Shown: positions 762 to 21,627, counted from the stretch's first letter. The stretch: 32,000 nucleotides of DNA from Thermodesulfobacteriota bacterium (GCA_026625185.1 CP113000.1:2085622-2117621), one strand, 5' to 3'. The notes: generated from the sequence alone by a model not told the origin. Program-made: numbers and translations.

Positions 762-2723
762 TCATCTACTATCGAGAGATCTGATACGTTTACAACTGTA
801 GAGGTACCAATCAAAATCCTGATATTTTAAAATAGCTATATAATTATAGACACGGATGTTTTTTCGCGAAAGAATTTTTTTCGGTTGATATTCCGGCACC
901 TCATACTGAGCAATGATAAAATCCAAATTCTGAGCCTTGCTACAGCATTTTTTAATCTCGTTTGCGTAGAAAACCTTCATCTTTATCAGTTGGTCTTTAG
1001 TGGAAACTATGATGGGATTCTCAACTGATTCCAATAATCCGATATTATTCATTCTCTTATCTAATTCCAGAGCTTTTTCACGAGAAAAGACAATACCGGA
1101 TTCTTGCAAACGAGATACATAATTTGTGCGGTTTAATAGAAACCATGATAACTCAGGATGCCCAAGCCACAGTATTTCTGAGTTTTTCGGTATATTCTCA
1201 GCCCCGAATGATTGCTCAACTCCGATTGTTTTCGCAAACAATTTTTCACACTCGAGCCTCTGGTCCCATAACCCCAGCGAAATAAAAAAGAAAGTCCCTG
1301 AAAGCGCGATCAAAAGTTTATTTTTTTGCCGCAGGTGATAGTATAAAAGCGGAATACCGGCAAAGATCAAAAGTAAGTTGGAAATTATCGCGTTATAATC
1401 CGGCACTAAATGGATCAATGAAAGAGAGTGGTTAAGCTTAAATATGGCAAAATAAAATAATAGGATATCAGTTAACAGTAGGACAACAGAAAGGATTACC
1501 AGAATGGTATCCAGCTTTATCCTGAAATCCTCGGTAAAAGGATTTTTTTTAAAGACCGTCCATTGCGATAAATATTTATTTTTCTTACTGTAGCTTATTA
1601 ATACCAGGAAGAATTCAATGATGATAAGGACTATATAATGTAGTGAAAACACCGTGGTGTATAAACAAAGCCAGGCCGCGCAATATACGGCTGCAAAGGA
1701 TTTCGCGAAATTTGAATAGTTCCTGATTTTGATATATATCGAGGGCAGGGATAGATAGGAAAAGAATAACAGCAGCCAGCAAGTTCGCCAGGTTTGAACC
1801 TGCAAAACCATTACGTTTTTAAGGAAATCACCCAAACACAAAGACAGGAGGAAGGATATCCCAATGGAAGCGAGGAGGGATATGGCTACCTTGCGTCTCT
1901 TCCCTCTATTGATAACCGCGTAAAGCAGTACTACTAAGAAAGATGCTAAGATCGGCAGAATATCCCTTAAGGTCCAGTTGCTCAGAAAAAGAACAGACGG
2001 AGATTTTTGAATGATACCTGCCCAGTCCGCGTCCATAGATTGAAATATTCTGACAAAGGGAGAGATACTAAATAGAGCTAATAATACGACAATTACTGAC
2101 AGTATGAGACCGATAATAATGGTAGGTCTACGGCGTTCGAAAAAAAAATAGACGTATAAAAAGATTGCTCCGGTGCCCGCCATAATGGGGTGCAGAAGAA
2201 AACTCATGGCCAAGGTAACCGGGCATAAAACAAACCTTCTTTTCAGGGCAAAAAATAGGGAAAACAGGACAAAAGCTTCGGCATATATTCTCGGGGTAAG
2301 AAAAGGCTCTCCAAAAGAAAATACGTGGTTGGCTCCATAAAAGGCCGGCATAGCGATAGCAAAGGCGAAAGAAAGGAATTTCAGCGCCCCTTTATAAAAT
2401 ATACCCGCCAGCAGATAGGCGGACACGAACCAGAGAACGTGACCGAGAATAAAAAGAATAATGTTTGCGGTAATGGGATTGGTCAGCTTGATGATGAACG
2501 CGTATGGATAAGAAAAAACCGTATAATTTTCCTGAGAGTCAAAGCGGAGAAAAAGATCATTTTTGAAAATCTCCGGTTTTATATGACTCATGGCCTGTAA
2601 GGTGTAAAGTTTTGCATCATAAACGATGCCTTTATAAGGATGACTAAGGATCCAGATTGATACCAAAGCCAGGAAGATTGAAATGATAAAGAGTAAATTT
2701 TTATGTGTTACCTTATTCATCAA
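762..2723 (-). CDS. large polytopic membrane protein, putative GT-C-type glycosyltransferase or polymerase with a soluble C-terminal domain
   Basis: 653-aa ORF with many hydrophobic segments over roughly the first two thirds, then a hydrophilic tail. It is the last gene of the minus-strand glycosylation operon. Function is assigned from architecture and context only. Confidence 0.6.
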   Translation of the reverse strand: MMNKVTHKNLLFIISIFLALVSIWILSHPYKGIVYDAKLYTLQAMSHIKPEIFKNDLFLRFDSQENYTVFSYPYAFIIKLTNPITANIILFILGHVLWFVSAYLLAGIFYKGALKFLSFAFAIAMPAFYGANHVFSFGEPFLTPRIYAEAFVLFSLFFALKRRFVLCPVTLAMSFLLHPIMAGTGAIFLYVYFFFERRRPTIIIGLILSVIVVLLALFSISPFVRIFQSMDADWAGIIQKSPSVLFLSNWTLRDILPILASFLVVLLYAVINRGKRRKVAISLLASIGISFLLSLCLGDFLKNVMVLQVQTWRTCWLLLFFSYLSLPSIYIKIRNYSNFAKSFAAVYCAAWLCLYTTVFSLHYIVLIIIEFFLVLISYSKKNKYLSQWTVFKKNPFTEDFRIKLDTILVILSVVLLLTDILLFYFAIFKLNHSLSLIHLVPDYNAIISNLLLIFAGIPLLYYHLRQKNKLLIALSGTFFFISLGLWDQRLECEKLFAKTIGVEQSFGAENIPKNSEILWLGHPELSWFLLNRTNYVSRLQESGIVFSREKALELDKRMNNIGLLESVENPIIVSTKDQLIKMKVFYANEIKKCCSKAQNLDFIIAQYEVPEYQPKKILSRKNIRVYNYIAILKYQDFDWYLYSCKRIRSLDSR

Positions 2724-2730
2724 TTAGTTA

Positions 2731-3092
2731 GCCGTTATCTGTTGACCGTTTCCCGTTGGCTGTTATCCGTTCACCGTTGTTCGTTTAATTGAGTTTTTAA
2801 GAGCGCTTATTTTGGCTGAGATTTTATGCAAGTGTTCGATTAACTCACTAAACGATTTATGATTAATATAATCTTGCTTCATCGAAATCTCGAGAAGCGG
2901 AACACATTCATGTGAGGAATCCAAAGCAATGCTAAGGAAATTTTGTTGTTTTATAAATTTGGTCAGCAAATTCGATAGCGTCTTTATATACTTCTAATCT
3001 TTCAAAATTGAATTGCATCTATTAATTCCCTCTCTCGTATAACCGATAACGGCGAACGTTGAACGGTAAACGGAAAACGGTCAACGGACAAC
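2731..3092 (-). mobile_element. IVS-like cassette copy 1: four-helix-bundle pseudogene flanked by CCGTT/AACGG-rich inverted arms
   Basis: The left arm (2731-2783, repeated nnCCGTT) and right arm (3043-3092, repeated AACGGnn) are imperfect inverted repeats sharing, for example, GTTGACCGTTT(C/T)CCGTT. The element exactly fills the gap between the stop at 3101 and the start at 2723. A second copy lies at 4643-5038. Confidence 0.7.
2763..3018 (-). pseudogene. four-helix-bundle protein (23S rRNA intervening-sequence protein family) remnant with internal deletion and frameshift
   Basis: On the minus strand, ATG at 3018 gives MQFNFERLEVYKDAIEFADQIYKTTKFP then a stop. A different frame continues NFLSIALDSSHECVPLLEISMKQDYINHKSFSELIEHLHKISAKISALKNSIK. 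Both halves resemble the N- and C-terminal parts of this family. The central segment (the AEG/SQLRRA-type region) is missing. Confidence 0.6.
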
Positions 3093-3100
3093 AATTAATA

Positions 3101-4624
3101 TTATTTTCTCACAAAAATAGTTCCCGCCTCATCCTCATAAACCTTCTTCCATCCCGGGCTGTCACCGATAAATTCAATAATTCTCTTGTTGTCTTTTTTA
3201 CTGAGTACCACGAAAGAGATTTTGTATTTATCCAGGATTTTTTCCCAATCTCCCATGCCGAAGTGCACGTCGCTGCAGTCTTTCCAGATCTCTTCCGGGA
3301 CCAGGTGCAGCCGGGTATCGGCGAATACCTTGTATTCCGGCCACAGTTTCCAGATCAGATAGCTTCCCCAGTTGATATCATTAAACATATTTCCCTTCAG
3401 GCCTTGTTTTTTTATATATTGCGCTATTGCCACCGGCTCGGATTTGGGATTAATAAAATTTCGCACGCTTTTGATGGGAAGATAAGGCCTGAACCAAGGG
3501 AGAAACGATATCGCGGTTATTAACAGAATAATGAAAAAGATGATGTTCAACGTCAGGCATTCGCTTTCGGTTTCTTCTTTTTTCCCCCCTGATATTTTTT
3601 GCCGCACCAGTTCTATCGAGCAAAAATGTGCGGCCAGGATCGGGGCGGAGACAATCCCCCACCACATGACCATTCGCTCCGCCTTAAAACCGACAAACAG
3701 AAAAACAAGAAGCAGCAAGGCTTCGGTAAAAGTAATTTTTCGTGTGCTGAATTTAAGGATGATGCCGGCAAGCACAACGGAGACAATAAAGCAATAGCCT
3801 AAACCATCCTTCATGGCGGTCGGCTGCCATTCGGCGGAGCGTGCTGCCGAACTTGATGCGTTCACCCATACGTCTTCCCAGATGTTTATACCGTAAGGAT
3901 TTATTAAGGTGACCAGCGTCAGCATTATCAGCAAAAAAAGAAGCCGTCTCAATCTTGAATCTTTGGTCAGTCTCCTGAATCTTTCCTTTGCAGTAACAGA
4001 ATATCCGGCTCTATTATAATATTCATCGGCTGCTCTTCCCACTAAAAAGATGCCGGCCAATATAATGGCAAGCGGGAAGCTGTTGTGAAGATTGACCCAC
4101 AGTATCATTAACAGTGACAACAAAAGGATTAAAGAATTGCCTATTTTTTCTTTTTGAAAAAGCTGACGGTAGAAAAAGACAAACAGGGGGATGGTAAACA
4201 ACTGGGGACGCATATACCAGTTGGTAAATCCGAGGACCGCGGCAAACACTATAAAAAGGAGAGTGACCTTATAATGCTTCGTTAGAATTTGGATAAGGTG
4301 ATAAAAGATGGACATGGCCAGAAGCAAAAGGCCGACTCTCAGAATGATAAGCGATTCGAGGCTCCCCATTTTCTCGCAAACTGCAAGCGCTACCTGCGAA
4401 AGCCAGCCGGAATTGATATACTGGAGGCCAAAAAAGGTATGGGTAAAGAGGTCATGGCTGATAATAGCCCTTTTTTCGATCATTGCTTGGCCGAGTTTAA
4501 GGTAATAGCCAAGGTCATTGGAAATTACATCACCCCCCAGGCCCAAGATGGCGGTCAGCCAGAAAGGAAGGATATAATAAATAGTTTTAAGCCTGAAAAG
4601 GGGAGGTATCTGGTCGGTTTTCAT
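3101..4624 (-). CDS. polytopic membrane glycosyltransferase, GT-C fold (ArnT/PMT-like), putative
   Basis: 507-aa ORF with multiple hydrophobic helices and a C-terminal soluble domain (WGSYLIWKLWPEYKVFADTRL...ISFVVLSKKD...WKKVYEDEAGTIFVRK), as seen in ArnT/PMT-like enzymes. It lies downstream of the GT2 and flippase genes. Confidence 0.6.
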   Translation of the reverse strand: MKTDQIPPLFRLKTIYYILPFWLTAILGLGGDVISNDLGYYLKLGQAMIEKRAIISHDLFTHTFFGLQYINSGWLSQVALAVCEKMGSLESLIILRVGLLLLAMSIFYHLIQILTKHYKVTLLFIVFAAVLGFTNWYMRPQLFTIPLFVFFYRQLFQKEKIGNSLILLLSLLMILWVNLHNSFPLAIILAGIFLVGRAADEYYNRAGYSVTAKERFRRLTKDSRLRRLLFLLIMLTLVTLINPYGINIWEDVWVNASSSAARSAEWQPTAMKDGLGYCFIVSVVLAGIILKFSTRKITFTEALLLLVFLFVGFKAERMVMWWGIVSAPILAAHFCSIELVRQKISGGKKEETESECLTLNIIFFIILLITAISFLPWFRPYLPIKSVRNFINPKSEPVAIAQYIKKQGLKGNMFNDINWGSYLIWKLWPEYKVFADTRLHLVPEEIWKDCSDVHFGMGDWEKILDKYKISFVVLSKKDNKRIIEFIGDSPGWKKVYEDEAGTIFVRK

Positions 4625-4681
4625 AGTAGTCGTTTACTGTGATCCGTTAACCGTTATTTGTTGACCGTTTTCCGTTGGCAG

Positions 4682-4950
4682 TTATCGGTTCATCGTTGTT
4701 CGTTTAAGTGAGTTTTTAAGGGCGCTTATTTTTGCTGATATTTTATACAATTGTTCGATTAACTCACTGAAGGATTTATGATCAATATATTTTTGTTTCA
4801 TCGAAATCTCTAAAATTTTCCTTCATTGTTTTTCCTCTCGTCCCCATTTTTTTACCCCTCACCTAAATCCTCTCCCCGGCGGGGAGAGGAAGGAAAGGAC
4901 GGAACACATTCATATGAGGAGCCAAGAGCAAGAAGAAAATTTAATTGCAT
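4682..4950 (-). pseudogene. four-helix-bundle protein remnant, disrupted by insertion and deletion
   Basis: On the minus strand, ATG at 4950 gives MQLNFLLALGSSYECVP and then runs into the inserted GGGGAGAGG element. The downstream remnant encodes ...EISMKQKYIDHKSFSELIEQLYKISAKISALKNSLKRTTMNR, closely parallel to copy 1. Confidence 0.55.
4811..4898. mobile_element. MITE/REP-like element (CCCCTCACC-N-TCCTCTCCCCGGCGGGGAGAGGA core) inserted into cassette copy 2
   Basis: Copy 1 has only GAGAAG between ATCGAAATCTC and CGGAACACATTCAT. Copy 2 has about 88 bp there, bounded by imperfect inverted ends (TTCCTTC..CCTCTCGTCCCC / GGGGAGAGGAAGGAAAGGA) and containing the family core. Confidence 0.6.
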
Positions 4951-5041
4951 CTATTAATTCCTTCCCTCCTATAACCGTTAACGGTGAATGGTTAACAGAA
5001 AACGGTAAACAGATAACGGTTAACGGAGAACAAAGAACGTT

Positions 5042-5785
5042 TTATATTCTGTATTTTCCGGTTAAATAACGTGTCCGTATTCTCACCAAATCAATCAACA
5101 TACTAAAAGAATCCTTCACCATATGAACCCGGGAGTCGGGAGAATTAATCCATTTTATGGGAACCTCCTTTATCCGGTATCCGTTTTTGTCTGCTATAAA
5201 AAGCAGTTCCACATCAAAACCAAATCCCCAAACAGTCTGTTTTGCAAACAGTACGTTGGCTGCCTCTTTTTTGAAGAGTTTGAAACCGCACTGGGTATCC
5301 TTGATCCCGGATAACGTGAGAAGCTGTACCAGCTTGTTGAAGGTCTTTCCCATAAACTCCCTTGGCCATGGCTGCCTCTCCAAAATATCCGACCCGGGCA
5401 ATGCCCGGGATCCGATAGCAATATCATAGCCTTGGTCGAGCCAGTCTGCCAGTTTATCAACTTCCTGGATAGGAGTGGATAGATCAGCATCGGAAAAAAG
5501 AATAATCCTTCCTTGGGAATGCAATACCCCGGCTCTTACCGAATATCCTTTCCCACGATTGACCTTATTTCCCAATAACCGGACAGAGGAAAACTCCCCG
5601 GCAAATTTTCTGATCACCTTGCGAGTGTTGTCACTGCTTCCATCATCCACCACAATGATCTCAGAGCGATAATCCCTGGTCAGTAAAAATTCGTGGATTT
5701 TTTGTAAGGTGGCGCCGATTCTTTCGGCTTCATTAAATGCAGGGATAACCACCGAAAGATGGATATTATTCAAGGATTCAACCAC
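5042..5785 (-). CDS. GT2 family polyprenyl-phosphate glycosyltransferase (ArnC/GtrB/DPM1-like)
   Basis: N-terminus LSVVIPAFNEAERIGATL, then IIVVDDGSSDNT, FSDADLSTP and DTQCGFKLF. This is the classic GT-A family 2 layout of the polyprenyl-phosphate sugar synthase type. GTG start. Confidence 0.85.
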   Translation of the reverse strand: MVESLNNIHLSVVIPAFNEAERIGATLQKIHEFLLTRDYRSEIIVVDDGSSDNTRKVIRKFAGEFSSVRLLGNKVNRGKGYSVRAGVLHSQGRIILFSDADLSTPIQEVDKLADWLDQGYDIAIGSRALPGSDILERQPWPREFMGKTFNKLVQLLTLSGIKDTQCGFKLFKKEAANVLFAKQTVWGFGFDVELLFIADKNGYRIKEVPIKWINSPDSRVHMVKDSFSMLIDLVRIRTRYLTGKYRI

Positions 5786-5845: not shown

Positions 5846-6196
5846 TTAGCTCCTGCCTACCATAATCACTCCCAGACAGATGCAAAGCACCCCCATGAGC
5901 CTTAAAAAAGAAAGATTTTCATTAAAGATCAGCCAGGAAGCAAGAACTATAAACACATAACTGAGACTGAGCATTGGATAGGCATAGCTCAAATCCACCC
6001 TTGAAAGGATAGACAGCCAAAGAAACATGGCTATGCCGTAAAGAACCAGACCCAGAAAGATATAAGGGGTGAAAATGACTTTTATCAAGCTGAGGTTTAA
6101 ACCGGCAGAGCCGGAAAGCAACATCCCCTTCTTTAACGAAACCTGTCCCACGACTCCCAGTGCCACGGCAGCGAAGATCATGAAAATATCTCTCAT
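5846..6196 (-). CDS. small 4-TM EamA/SMR-like protein, putative lipid-linked sugar flippase subunit (ArnE/ArnF/GtrA-like role)
   Basis: 116 aa with four hydrophobic helices and the motif SRVDLSYAYPMLSLSYVFIVLASWLIFNE, typical of ArnE/ArnF-type half-EamA proteins. It lies immediately upstream of the GT2 gene. Confidence 0.75.
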   Translation of the reverse strand: MRDIFMIFAAVALGVVGQVSLKKGMLLSGSAGLNLSLIKVIFTPYIFLGLVLYGIAMFLWLSILSRVDLSYAYPMLSLSYVFIVLASWLIFNENLSFLRLMGVLCICLGVIMVGRS

Positions 6197-6504
6197 CTAA
6201 CGTGTCTCCTTATAATTTTTTGCCCCATCACTCCTTTTAACCTGCGATATAATGTGTCATTGATAATATCACGGCTATGGCCATAAATACATCCCTGTTT
6301 GGAGGTGGAGCGACCGGGTGAAAAAATGCTATAGTAAAAAGTTGTTGATATTCTTAAAAAAATTACAATTAAAATTATATAAAATAACATAGTGGAAATT
6401 ATGAATAAAAAATAAAAGCTAATGTTAATTAGCCATTCAATTCTTTTATCGCATGCCGATAATTGTCCATAGTGTGCCAAAAATTTTCTTATTTTTTTAA
6501 ACAA
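6193..6504 (-). CDS. small membrane protein, unknown function; putative first gene of the operon
   Basis: 103-aa ORF with a central hydrophobic stretch. Its stop overlaps the next gene's start as ATGA (6193-6196), suggesting translational coupling. No family recognised. Confidence 0.4.
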   Translation of the reverse strand: MFKKIRKFLAHYGQLSACDKRIEWLINISFYFLFIISTMLFYIILIVIFLRISTTFYYSIFSPGRSTSKQGCIYGHSRDIINDTLYRRLKGVMGQKIIRRHVR

Positions 6505-6667: not shown

Positions 6668-6769
6668 TGGAAGTTGAATAAGTTCAGACAATATTGATCC
6701 TTAGGAAAAAGCCACACCAGTGGTGAGGCTGGGCCGGAAAGCCACGGGTCTTAATTAATCGAAAGATAT

Positions 6770-6803
6770 CCGGGTTGCCAAAAAAGGTAACCGGCTATTT
6801 TTT
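6770..6803 (+). terminator. intrinsic terminator-like hairpin plus T-tract
   Basis: CCGGGTTGCC-AAAAAA-GGTAACCGG (one bulge, one G-U pair) followed by CTATTTTTT. It lies about 100 nt downstream of the sigma-54-like promoter. Confidence 0.45.
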
Positions 6804-6812
6804 GGTATTAAT

Positions 6813-6854
6813 CCCCCTCACCTCAATCCTCTCCCCGGCGGGGAGAGGATTGAA
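6813..6854 (+). repeat. REP/MITE-like palindromic element (CCCCCTCACCTCAATCCTCTCCCCGGCGGGGAGAGGATTGA)
   Basis: A 14-bp perfect stem, TCAATCCTCTCCCC / GGGGAGAGGATTGA. The same core occurs at 4855-4893, 9441-9480 (inverted) and 11001-11040. Degenerate hairpins of the same type follow at 6855-6960. Confidence 0.75.
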
Positions 6855-7165: not shown

Positions 7166-7339
7166 ATGGAAAAGTTAAAAAAATTTTTTAAAGAGGAGGA
7201 GGGCGTGACCGCACTTGAATACACAGTGCTCGCCGCACTTATAATTATCGTGATAATTATATTTTTTACCCCGATACGAAATGCCGTTAGTAAGATATGG
7301 TCAGAAATTAATAGTGCAATGACGGCTGCAACATCATAA
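7166..7339 (+). CDS. flp: Flp family type IVb pilin
   Basis: Not in the ORF track (57 aa). AGGAGG lies 7 nt upstream of the ATG. Translation is MEKLKKFFKEEEGVTALEYTVLAALIIIVIIIFFTPIRNAVSKIWSEINSAMTAATS. It contains the Flp processing motif G/VTALEY followed by a hydrophobic helix, and lies directly upstream of the prepilin peptidase. Confidence 0.9.
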   Translation: MEKLKKFFKEEEGVTALEYTVLAALIIIVIIIFFTPIRNAVSKIWSEINSAMTAATS

Positions 7340-7515: not shown

Positions 7516-8049
7516 GTGATCAGTGATGTTTATCTGTCCACATTTTTAGCCATAATTCTTTTGATTGCGGCAATATACGACATTTGGGTTGCTAAAATTC
7601 CCAATGTGATCACGTTCTCCGGTATGATAACCGGCATTATATATCATGGGGCAGCTCAGGGTTTGAGCGGGGCCGGGCTGAGTATTGCCGGCCTGCTGGC
7701 AGGGAGCGCGGTATTTTTCCCTTTTTACCTGCTGAAAGGAATGGGAGCCGGGGATATAAAGCTGATGGGAGCGGTGGGCTCCTTAGTGGCCTGGAAAGGA
7801 ATAATCCCGGCTATTGTTTTTACCGCGCTGGCCGGAGGCATTTATGCGTTTGCGCTTATTTTTTGCAATCCCAGTACCTGCAAGAGATTGATCTTTGGAT
7901 CAATATCAATGTTTAAGACTCTTGCGCTGACCGGGCAGATTGTTCTTCCCTCCTTATTTGAAAAGGAGAAAAAGCCGCAGGTGCGTTATGGGGTGGCGAT
8001 CGCCGCGGGAACTTTATTTTCGCAGTGGTGGTGGCCGCTGCTTAAGTAG
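7516..8049 (+). CDS. cpaA: A24 family prepilin peptidase (CpaA/TadV)
   Basis: 177-aa polytopic protein with the LKGMGAGDIKLMGAVG aspartyl-protease motif and an N-terminal IYDIWVAKIPN segment. GTG start. Tad locus context. Confidence 0.85.
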   Translation: MISDVYLSTFLAIILLIAAIYDIWVAKIPNVITFSGMITGIIYHGAAQGLSGAGLSIAGLLAGSAVFFPFYLLKGMGAGDIKLMGAVGSLVAWKGIIPAIVFTALAGGIYAFALIFCNPSTCKRLIFGSISMFKTLALTGQIVLPSLFEKEKKPQVRYGVAIAAGTLFSQWWWPLLK

Positions 8050-9198: not shown

Positions 9199-9480
9199 CA
9201 CCCTCACCCCGGCCCTCTCCCTCAAGGGAGAGGGAGTTTTGAATTGATTCTCTCCCTCAAGGGAGAGGGAGTTTTGAATTGATTCTCTCCCTCAAGGGAG
9301 AGTGGGGTGGTTGCTTCTCTCTCCATTAAGGGAAAAAATGTTTTTTGGTTTCTTCTCTCCGTTAAAGGGGAGATAGAAATTTTGGTTTGATTCTCTCCCT
9401 TAAGGGAGAAGGAAAATTTGGAGTGGATTTTGAAACGTTACCTCCTCTCCCCTGCGGGGAGAGGATTGAGGTGAGGGGGC
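9199..9480. repeat. tandem array of about 7 palindromic hairpin units (TCTCCCTCAAGGGAGA type, period about 36-37 bp), bounded by inverted CACCCTCACC / GGTGAGGGGG
   Basis: Hairpins start near 9213, 9250, 9286, 9318, 9354, 9391 and 9443. The first three are near-identical, including their spacers (AGTTTTGAATTGATT). The last unit is the canonical family core in inverted orientation. Confidence 0.8.
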
Positions 9481-11440: not shown

Positions 11441-12199
11441 TTAAAAATTACTAATTAACAATTCTTTCCCTTCGCTGTGATTACCCCTATTTAGAGTATA
11501 AATTGTCGATACCGGCTTAATTTTAAATCCTTTAAATATTTCCCTGATCTCCTGCGCATCATTGATACTCAGAACGAATTGCGCTTTGATTTTGGCCAGC
11601 TTATCCGCCATCTCTTTATAATCAGGCAGTTCCATATTAAACTTATACCAGGGAGCCTTCCAATAGGGCGGATCGAGATAAAAAAAGGCCTCAGCACGAT
11701 CATAACAAACCAAAAATTTCTGGTACGGGAGATTTTCAATCGTAACCTGAGACAACCTCAAATGGACTTCTGATAACTCCTCTTCCAGCCGAAGCAGATT
11801 AATCCCGGGTCTATGCAAGGGTCTCATCCCAAAGTTTCTACCCACCACCTTTGCGCTGAACGCGTGCCGCTGGAGATAATAATAATGGGCTGCTCGTTGG
11901 ATATCAGTCAAACCCCCGGCAACTTGCTGCCGCTTAAAATCCTCGAACCATTCTCTCGATGATAAAATCCATTTAAATTGTTTTAAAAACTCCTCTAAAT
12001 GATGCTGTAATACACGGTAAAAGCAAATCAGATCGCTATCCAGATCATTGATAACTTCAAATTTAGAGGGTTCTTTGCGAAAAAATACCCACGCTGCCCC
12101 GGCAAAGACCTCACAGTACATTTTGTGCTCCGGGATCATCTCAATTATTGTTTTTGCCAGCTTACTTTTGCCGCCGATGTACGCTAATGGACTGTCCAC
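11441..12199 (-). CDS. dam: D12-class N6-adenine DNA methyltransferase (Dam family), orphan
   Basis: N-terminal YIGGKSKLA, then EVFAGAAWVF (AdoMet-binding region) and the catalytic FYLDPPYW motif. GTG start 6 nt after AAGGAGG. No adjacent restriction endonuclease ORF. Confidence 0.9.
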   Translation of the reverse strand: MDSPLAYIGGKSKLAKTIIEMIPEHKMYCEVFAGAAWVFFRKEPSKFEVINDLDSDLICFYRVLQHHLEEFLKQFKWILSSREWFEDFKRQQVAGGLTDIQRAAHYYYLQRHAFSAKVVGRNFGMRPLHRPGINLLRLEEELSEVHLRLSQVTIENLPYQKFLVCYDRAEAFFYLDPPYWKAPWYKFNMELPDYKEMADKLAKIKAQFVLSINDAQEIREIFKGFKIKPVSTIYTLNRGNHSEGKELLISNF

Positions 12200-21563: not shown

Positions 21564-21627
21564 ATTATTTGTTCACCGTTCGCCGTTTTCCGTTGTCCGG
21601 GGTCAGGGGAAAATGTCGCCGATTTCA

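Follow-up and report, generated by a model that had tools for sequence, protein, structure and literature searches.

Two intergenic gaps in a glycosylation operon of a Thermodesulfobacteriota bacterium, contained in the 32,000-nt stretch of genome that we analysed (GCA_026625185.1, CP113000.1:2085622-2117621; hereafter the window, from whose first letter element and host-gene coordinates are counted), are each occupied by a decayed copy of one and the same kind of element. We consider it rather probable that both derive, by pseudogenisation, from a widespread cassette of autonomous base composition that resides in operons between inverted arrays of heptanucleotide repeats (heptads). Such a cassette would consist of a promoterless gene for a four-helix-bundle protein (PF05635, Avd-like) with its own Shine-Dalgarno sequence, enclosed by arrays of a lineage-specific heptad, here CCGTTnn on one side and nnAACGG on the other. 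With the protein function presumably lost in both copies at this locus, all that is left is a hairpin, which we take in all likelihood for a near-neutral relic and not for a regulator that evolved for this operon.

The operon lies on the minus strand and is headed by two small ArnE/F-like genes (6504..5846), followed by a gene for a GT2 polyprenyl-phosphate glycosyltransferase-like protein (247 aa; 5042..5785), the element that we call copy 2 (4631..5039), a 507-aa gene (3101..4624), copy 1 (2727..3098) and a 652/653-aa gene (762..2723; start at 2720/2723). The initial annotation of this DNA had described both gaps as filled edge to edge by homologous elements that point in the direction of the operon, and we could confirm this: both copies are on the minus strand, like the three host genes, and leave next to no spacer unoccupied. 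The 5′ arm of copy 2 (4973..5039, about nine CCGTTnn heptads) begins 2 nt past the GT2 stop codon (5044-5042), and its 3′ arm (4631..4697, nnAACGG heptads) stops 6 nt short of the ATG of the 507-aa gene (4624). In copy 1, the 5′ arm (3041..3098, about eight CCGTTnn heptads) likewise begins 2 nt past a stop codon, that of the 507-aa gene (3103-3101), and the 3′ arm (2727..2785, nnAACGG heptads) stops 7 nt short of the ATG at 2720. Because the same sequence was recovered in three independent assemblies (an NCBI metagenome-assembled genome (MAG), a JGI metagenome and a Logan assembly), the elements are real and not an assembly artefact. The GT-C identity once assigned to the 507-aa protein could not be verified, as sequence searches of Pfam, NCBIfam and the PDB returned no match for it, and family searches with the 652/653-aa protein gave no match, either.

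The two copies align in three blocks, namely 2727-2896 with 4646-4815 (88% identity over 170 nt), 3004-3092 with 4936-5024 (81%, 89 nt) and 2898-2929 with 4900-4931 (84%, 32 nt). Each is closed by an inverted repeat, of 52 nt and 75% complementarity in copy 1 (2734-2785 / 3041-3092) and of 67 nt and 73% complementarity in copy 2 (4631-4697 / 4973-5039), with seven to nine heptads per arm. The arms had initially been put at roughly 50 nt of nnCCGTT / AACGGnn heptads, in good agreement with these repeats and with the distribution of a three-heptad pattern, CCGTTnnCCGTTnnCCGTT, which at up to three mismatches occurs 36 times in the window (1.09 expected), 30 of them inside the four arms. Immediately outside both arms of copy 1 lies the hexamer TAATTG (3092-3100 and 2724-2729); this could be a target-site duplication, but we do not claim it as such since there is no equivalent at copy 2 or at the orthologues. 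A solo array of three to four heptads of the 3′-arm type, (nnAACGG)n on the minus strand, with neither a partner arm nor a remnant of an open reading frame (ORF), is present at 21569..21601. In a prophage tail operon, it occupies part of the 64-nt gap that separates a DUF2460 gene from a baseplate-hub gene, and 5 nt lie between its end and the ATG of the latter. It could be what a cassette left behind or, independently of any cassette, a direct-repeat leader of the kind represented by the TAACTGA repeats of Beggiatoaceae.

What did the arms once enclose? The interiors had been read as remnants of the four-helix-bundle gene family known from intervening sequences (IVSs) of 23S rRNA, and hidden Markov model searches with conceptually repaired translations support this assignment: copy 1 exceeds the curated cut-offs of both PF05635 (39.5 bits; cut-off, 33.8) and TIGR02436 (32.9 bits; cut-off, 24), and copy 2 exceeds that of TIGR02436 (27.3 bits) and falls below that of PF05635 (25.0 bits). 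A structural counterpart exists for the closest intact homologue: P0001 matches 2GSC, a pentameric four-helix bundle (E 2.7e-20), and, weakly, bAvd. A HEPN-like R-x6-H motif in the protein was considered and dropped because its histidine is not conserved in the alignment. At gathering thresholds, no Rfam family covers either element, the sole match in the window being a c-di-GMP-I riboswitch; the window contains no rRNA, and the elements sit between protein-coding genes and not in helix 25 or 45 of a 23S rRNA gene.

Neither copy retains an intact ORF of about 115-125 aa, and alignment with intact relatives bears out that the two pseudogenes were inactivated in different ways. In copy 1, some 113 nt are missing from the interior between a pair of ATTTCC repeats, and the frame is shifted as a result; what remains is an N-terminal fragment with a Shine-Dalgarno sequence upstream (2932..3018, reading MQFNFERLEVYKDAIEFADQIYKTTKFP up to a stop codon) and, in a different frame, a C-terminal fragment (2763..2933, reading SIALDSSHECVPLLEISMKQ...KRTTVNG before its stop codon) whose end overlaps the 3′ arm. 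In copy 2, a bigger deletion removed approximately codons 6-66 and fused MQLNF to LLALGSSYECVP (N-terminal remnant, 4852..4950), after which the frame enters an 84-nt insertion (4816..4899); the C-terminal remnant (4682..4813) reads LEISMKQKYIDHKSF...KRTTMNR, followed by a stop codon. The insertion yielded no match in a plasmid search and turned out to be a local palindromic repeat instead: at its core is the palindrome CTCTCCCCGCCGGGGAGAGG (4869-4888), one member of a second small repeat family with further copies at 6828-6847 and 9444-9463 (6 strand-hits as compared to 0.01 expected); two copies of the family have about 45 nt in common.

The arrangement is by no means confined to the present operon. 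The closest intact proteins, P0001 (122 aa) and P0002 (117 aa), are encoded between a GT2 gene and a gene of about 500-508 aa in related contigs, and intact orthologues of 117-122 aa occupy this same slot, upstream of the orthologue of the 507-aa gene, in the loci L001, L003/L004 and L081 (three related metagenome or MAG assemblies), always with CCGTTnn / nnAACGG arms on both sides. Copy 2 is thus the positional orthologue of intact cassettes. L081, a fourth orthologous locus with the same layout, was the only further one to emerge from a scan of metagenomes for the DNA pattern. Flanking proteins of the window are 74-85% identical to those of L001 and 65-69% identical to those of L003. At the DNA level, the L001 cassette groups with both copies of the window (87-92% identity), and arm length varies among the orthologues from 3.5 to 10 heptads (about 10 versus 5 heptads in the two arms of L001 and about 3.5 versus 8 in those of L003). 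The GT2 gene of L001 is called as 190 aa (5160-5732 of that locus) versus 245-247 aa in the window, L003 and L081; its coding sequence seems to run on to the stop codon at 5902-5904, which may reflect a frameshift or a gene-calling problem. The second slot, filled by copy 1 in the window, is empty in L001, the closest relative, where only a 117-nt spacer (7911-8028) separates the 508-aa from the 657-aa gene. Copy 1 was hence either gained in the lineage of the window or lost in that of L001.

The same tight subfamily (mean column identity 72%) recurs, co-oriented and with the same heptads, in unrelated operons of other Desulfobacteraceae-type contigs, for example between genes for an epimerase/dehydratase and a DegT aminotransferase or between those for an NTP-transferase and an APH-type kinase. 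One locus, L020, carries ORF-less paired CCGTT/AACGG arrays (2694-2778 and 3086-3215) in frame within a DegT-family aminotransferase gene, to which they contribute peptide segments of 29 and about 40 aa, such as SPFTVHRLPFKVGRWTIDDGQQTTDNE. None of the 20 related loci scanned lies inside 23S rRNA, and a search of viral contigs found no relatives of the subfamily.

Beyond this subfamily, we surveyed 64 PF05635 loci from many phyla, scanning one genome per species; the family is far larger still, P0001 alone matching 18,774 clusters at 50% identity. The heptad architecture proved to be general. Self-similarity of the flanks at period 7 had a median of 19/28, compared to 12/28 in control segments (Mann-Whitney p = 9e-36), and period 8 was the only other one enriched, in Flavobacteriales. 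Period-8 arrays (e.g., GGTGATAT) are found in Winogradskyella (L032, L036-L039, L047, L051), several species of which have the cassette in the same slot, and in other Flavobacteriales (L029, L034). The motif itself is lineage-specific (TGAGAGK in a planctomycete, CAGTTGC in an acidobacterium, AAAGATT in Opitutales, GTGACAC in Saprospirales), and the upstream motif matches the reverse complement of its downstream partner far better within a locus than between loci (5.95/7 versus 3.76/7; p = 9e-13). Motifs are common only to cassettes whose proteins are at least 60% identical, and a single MAG may harbour two different ones (L033 and L050). Array length ranges from 3 to more than 20 units, which is why we dropped the simple rule of one heptad per subunit of a single pentamer.

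Placement is equally regular. In 43 of 48 loci, both neighbours are on the same strand as the cassette. Relative to the upstream stop codon, the median start of the arrays is at -2 nt, and a median of 4 nt separates their end from the downstream start codon. Host pairs, as read from the flanking translations, include atpA|atpG, nusG|rplK, iscS|iscU, RND adaptor|pump and livK|livH-like genes. As a rule, the family lives in operon spacers. Among the few loci not co-oriented with protein-coding neighbours is L043 of an uncultured archaeon, in which about 135 nt separate the four-helix-bundle gene (3001-3351) from a 16S rRNA gene (3486-4937) whose 3′ end faces it on the opposite strand. No reverse-transcriptase domain was detected among the called cassette neighbours or the scanned ORFs of the window.

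Intact four-helix-bundle genes are under purifying selection (dN/dS, the ratio of nonsynonymous to synonymous substitution rates, 0.04-0.19), and the protein therefore matters where it is intact. GC content at their third codon positions (GC3) stays at 31-35% regardless of that of the host genes (41-60%). Between L003 and L001 or L081, synonymous divergence is 0.23-0.40 for the cassette gene and 0.86-1.35 for the flanking genes, i.e., three- to fivefold lower in the cassette, which on sequence comparison looks younger than the divergence of its host genes, with constraint on synonymous sites as a possible alternative. Together, purifying selection, constant low GC3 and younger synonymous sites fit a mobile cassette embedded in transcripts, and multiple copies, presence/absence differences and ORF-less forms all occur: two copies and a solo array in the window, the empty slot of L001 and the in-frame copies of L020.

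How would an operon put up with such an insertion? Folding predicts the long arm-arm stems that were initially postulated. The whole-element folds reach -103.6 kcal/mol for copy 1 (z -4.9) and -123.8 kcal/mol for copy 2 (z -6.3), and the arms are paired in both the minimum-free-energy and the centroid folds of the two remnants and of three intact orthologues. On their own, the arms of each copy fold at -59 kcal/mol, as compared to -22 for mononucleotide and -46 for heptad-block shuffles, and only 1-2% of the latter pair as well as the real arms. The predicted arm helices of 26-32 bp would be long enough for RNase III. Scanning both elements for terminators and promoters returned counts at chance level and no GC-rich hairpin followed by a U-run. 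In the model we favour, the arms would pair in the polycistronic RNA to form an imperfect helix of 26-32 bp that loops the cassette out and may bring the stop codon of one host gene to about 8 nt from the start codon of the next, so that insertion would be tolerated even in tightly coupled operons. By analogy with the rRNA IVSs of Coxiella, Leptospira and Salmonella, this helix is a likely substrate of RNase III. Cleavage at the present locus, and likewise any role in mRNA stability or as a barrier to translation, is conjectural.

Several points weigh against interpreting the elements as relics of a mobile, looped-out cassette. Co-transcription, stem formation in vivo and cleavage by RNase III are all inferences, and the direction of change at copy 1, gain here or loss in L001, is read from a single comparison. 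Neither transposase nor integrase nor a reproducible target-site duplication could be identified, and no transposase adjoins the cassettes examined. Cassettes keep one slot across whole genera (Winogradskyella, Hymenobacter), from which it follows that they move rarely. Low synonymous divergence could in part reflect constraint on an AT-rich coding sequence. The stem could simply come with having two inverted arrays and need not have been selected as a structure: across 11 cassettes of the CCGTT subfamily, arm complementarity is only marginally better within cassettes than between them (19.9 versus 17.2) and a cassette's own pair is rarely the best, so that covariation lends no support to a selected structure. 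Finally, neither RNase III processing nor looping-out accounts for the 7-nt (or 8-nt) periodicity.

Among the alternatives, we regard as possible, albeit on balance unlikely, that the element acts as a translational-coupling device without any cleavage. The closing helix would hide the downstream initiation region until a ribosome reaches the upstream stop codon, 2 nt ahead of the 5′ arm; by terminating there, it would melt the helix base and free the start codon, 6-7 nt past the 3′ arm. Stop-start coupling would thereby be maintained across 380-410 nt. The stop/start geometry on which this depends is true of the window and holds across the family, the downstream genes have no obvious Shine-Dalgarno sequence, and cassettes are tolerated in pairs as tightly coupled as atpA|atpG, nusG|rplK and iscS|iscU. 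However, the argument is a purely structural one and is compatible with cutting by RNase III rather than exclusive of it; the often very unequal arms, as in L001 and L003, sit uneasily with it; and in intact cassettes, ribosomes translating the four-helix-bundle ORF would open the 3′ arm anyway.

Unlikely, too, is the reading put forward initially, that of a domesticated intercistronic RNA element. Selection would keep its stems either as RNase III sites, through which the GT2, 507-aa and 653-aa cistrons become independent of one another in stability, or as barriers to 3′-5′ exonucleases or to translation. Intercistronic RNase III sites have classical precedents (T7 early mRNA, rpsO-pnp), and the hairpins of repetitive extragenic palindromic (REP) sequences stabilise upstream cistrons. 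Both remnants have lost their ORFs by internal deletions and kept both arms, the stems are strong and slightly dependent on heptad order, and the stem bases coincide exactly with stop and start codons. Against this, there are but two cases, in which deletions that spare the arms are not improbable given that about 30% of each element is arm sequence, and the arms show no compensatory changes. The L001 operon evidently works without an element in its second slot, and loss of arms does occur, as the solo array at 21569-21601 illustrates. As the element sequence is identical in all assemblies found, no population signal is to be had. A selected role in this operon is thus not supported, as there is no covariation, the second slot of L001 is empty and the solo array documents arm loss. 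The initial annotation had gone further and proposed that the RNA structure rather than the protein is what persists. Of this, the retention of the arms in both copies stands; as a general statement it is not supported, since it draws on two decayed copies and is at odds with the low dN/dS of intact relatives, the missing covariation and the loss of arms from the solo array.

Bolder, and in our estimation improbable, is the idea that the four-helix-bundle gene and its inverted heptad arrays constitute an unrecognised class of transcript-embedded mobile element, wherein an Avd-like pentamer reads its own heptads (in RNA or single-stranded DNA) and mediates copying into stop-start junctions and rRNA loops. 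A pentamer reading its own heptads would explain both the 7/8-nt period and the way in which the motif tracks the protein. Copying might proceed via an RNA intermediate, with reverse transcriptase supplied in trans; a sense orientation that is all but absolute would then be expected. ORF-less hairpins would then be non-autonomous derivatives, with the paired heptanucleotide sites of Geobacter, the in-frame insertions of L020 and the two relics in the window as candidates. Heptad periodicity is the best lead towards something new. Quite unlikely, by comparison with our preferred reading of a looped-out cassette, is that RNA pairing is incidental and that the arrays serve, in the manner of iterons, to bind either the cassette's own pentamer or nucleoid proteins of the host, the latter being what Aklujkar et al. 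proposed in Geobacter. The strict period that the RNA-stem model leaves unexplained, the binding of nucleic acid by Avd, a motif that goes with the cassette lineage and not the genome, and the homology of the family to Avd (PMC10053308) speak for it, but binding is putative, arrays follow no fixed stoichiometry and persist here although both protein copies are dead, and a DNA-binding site has no need of the strong bias for sense orientation.

As for its wider meaning, PF05635 is very large, yet its members are annotated merely as 'four helix bundle protein' or '23S rRNA IVS protein'. Our survey points to a defined architecture common to them, with inverted heptad arrays, sense orientation and stop-to-start placement, and the cassettes emerge as compositionally autonomous passengers of operons, essential ones included. 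The survey would tie together rRNA IVSs, the paired heptanucleotide sites of Geobacter and possibly heptad repeats upstream of start codons. The purpose of IVS ORFs thereby becomes testable, be it in RNase III processing, in looping-out or translational coupling, or in an Avd-like pentamer that binds heptads. For annotation, it would mean that spacers of this kind, and short peptide insertions in frame of the 'NGERTTDNG' type, derive from elements. The practical meaning of the present locus, with its two dead copies, is modest, and its interest lies mainly in the architecture seen across the family.

Two neighbouring regions of the window deserve mention in their own right. Divergent from the glycosylation operon, the c-di-GMP-I riboswitch (6701-6782, plus strand) scores 56.6 bits, with a gathering score of 35. 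Downstream of it follow a Flp pilin ORF (7166-7339) and genes for a prepilin peptidase, RcpC and a secretin, and this Tad/Flp pilus cluster is therefore riboswitch-led. The minus strand from about 11400 to 32000 encodes the structural module of a Mu-like prophage (Mu F, Gp36, Gp37, tail tube, DUF2460, hub, Phage-tail_3/Rcc01698-like and DUF2793 proteins), adjoined by a gene for a D12-class adenine methyltransferase (11441-12199).

How does the cassette compare to known systems? In the literature searched, which omits most subscription journals, we found no paper that links PF05635 genes, heptad arms and embedding in operons. The RNase III hairpins of T7 early mRNA and rpsO-pnp resemble it in that two cistrons of a single transcript are separated by a long, imperfectly paired RNA duplex; they are, however, short, dedicated and shown to be cut, whereas the predicted helix here closes a loop of 250-300 nt containing a (pseudo)gene. 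Rickettsia palindromic elements, REP sequences and bacterial interspersed mosaic elements, and repeats of the type of miniature inverted-repeat transposable elements are small multi-copy palindromes in intercistronic spacers with a possible effect on mRNA stability. Those of Rickettsia also form in-frame insertions within coding sequence, as in L020. Unlike all of these, the present arms are tandem heptad arrays and not a unique palindrome, many copies carry a conserved protein gene, and no cognate transposase (RAYT-like) is known. Short tandemly repeated repetitive (STRR) heptanucleotide repeats of cyanobacteria are likewise tandem heptads in intergenic spacers. Together with the TAACTGA direct repeats that end just before start codons in Beggiatoaceae (MacGregor; PMC4679880), they share with the cassette arms, and with the solo array at 21569-21601, a position in spacers ending a few nt before start codons, but they are described as direct repeats, not as inverted pairs, and without a link to a four-helix-bundle gene. 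PF05635 has been recognised as Avd-like, and Avd of diversity-generating retroelements (PF22296) is indeed a homologous pentameric four-helix-bundle protein (PMC10053308); neither a reverse transcriptase nor template/variable repeats adjoin the cassettes examined, however, and heptad arms are not a feature of these retroelements.

Closer in layout are the sites described in Geobacter metallireducens, where dozens of paired inverted tandem repeats, some with five heptanucleotides, lie between the genes of operons and were interpreted as IHF/HU 'global regulator binding sites' (Aklujkar et al. 2009, PMC2700814). These, too, are multi-copy pairs of inverted tandem heptads (MTYCTGA x5) between co-oriented genes (proB|proA, moaA|mosC), sometimes within genes; they differ in that the members of a pair are about 100 bp apart, with no ORF described between them and no connection made to PF05635. 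The nearest counterparts are the 23S rRNA IVSs of Leptospira and Coxiella burnetii (PMC4990558). Their host is helix 25 or helix 45 of 23S rRNA and not the spacer of a polycistronic mRNA, their excision by RNase III is demonstrated and not, as here, inferred, and the arms of our elements are longer, with seven to nine heptads on both sides. What they have in common is the protein family, an ORF in sense orientation and terminal inverted repeats that close a long stem, and the kinship with rRNA IVSs suggested from the outset is reinforced by Coxiella in particular: its IVS, with a terminal stem of 28 bp, carries three to four tandem GACAGAT heptamers, varying in number by strain, next to the S23p ORF on its upstream side, the first of them being where RNase III cuts (PMC4990558). 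There as here, the ORF is prone to decay and the RNA element persists; the authors of that study, too, attach more importance to the RNA than to the decaying ORF.

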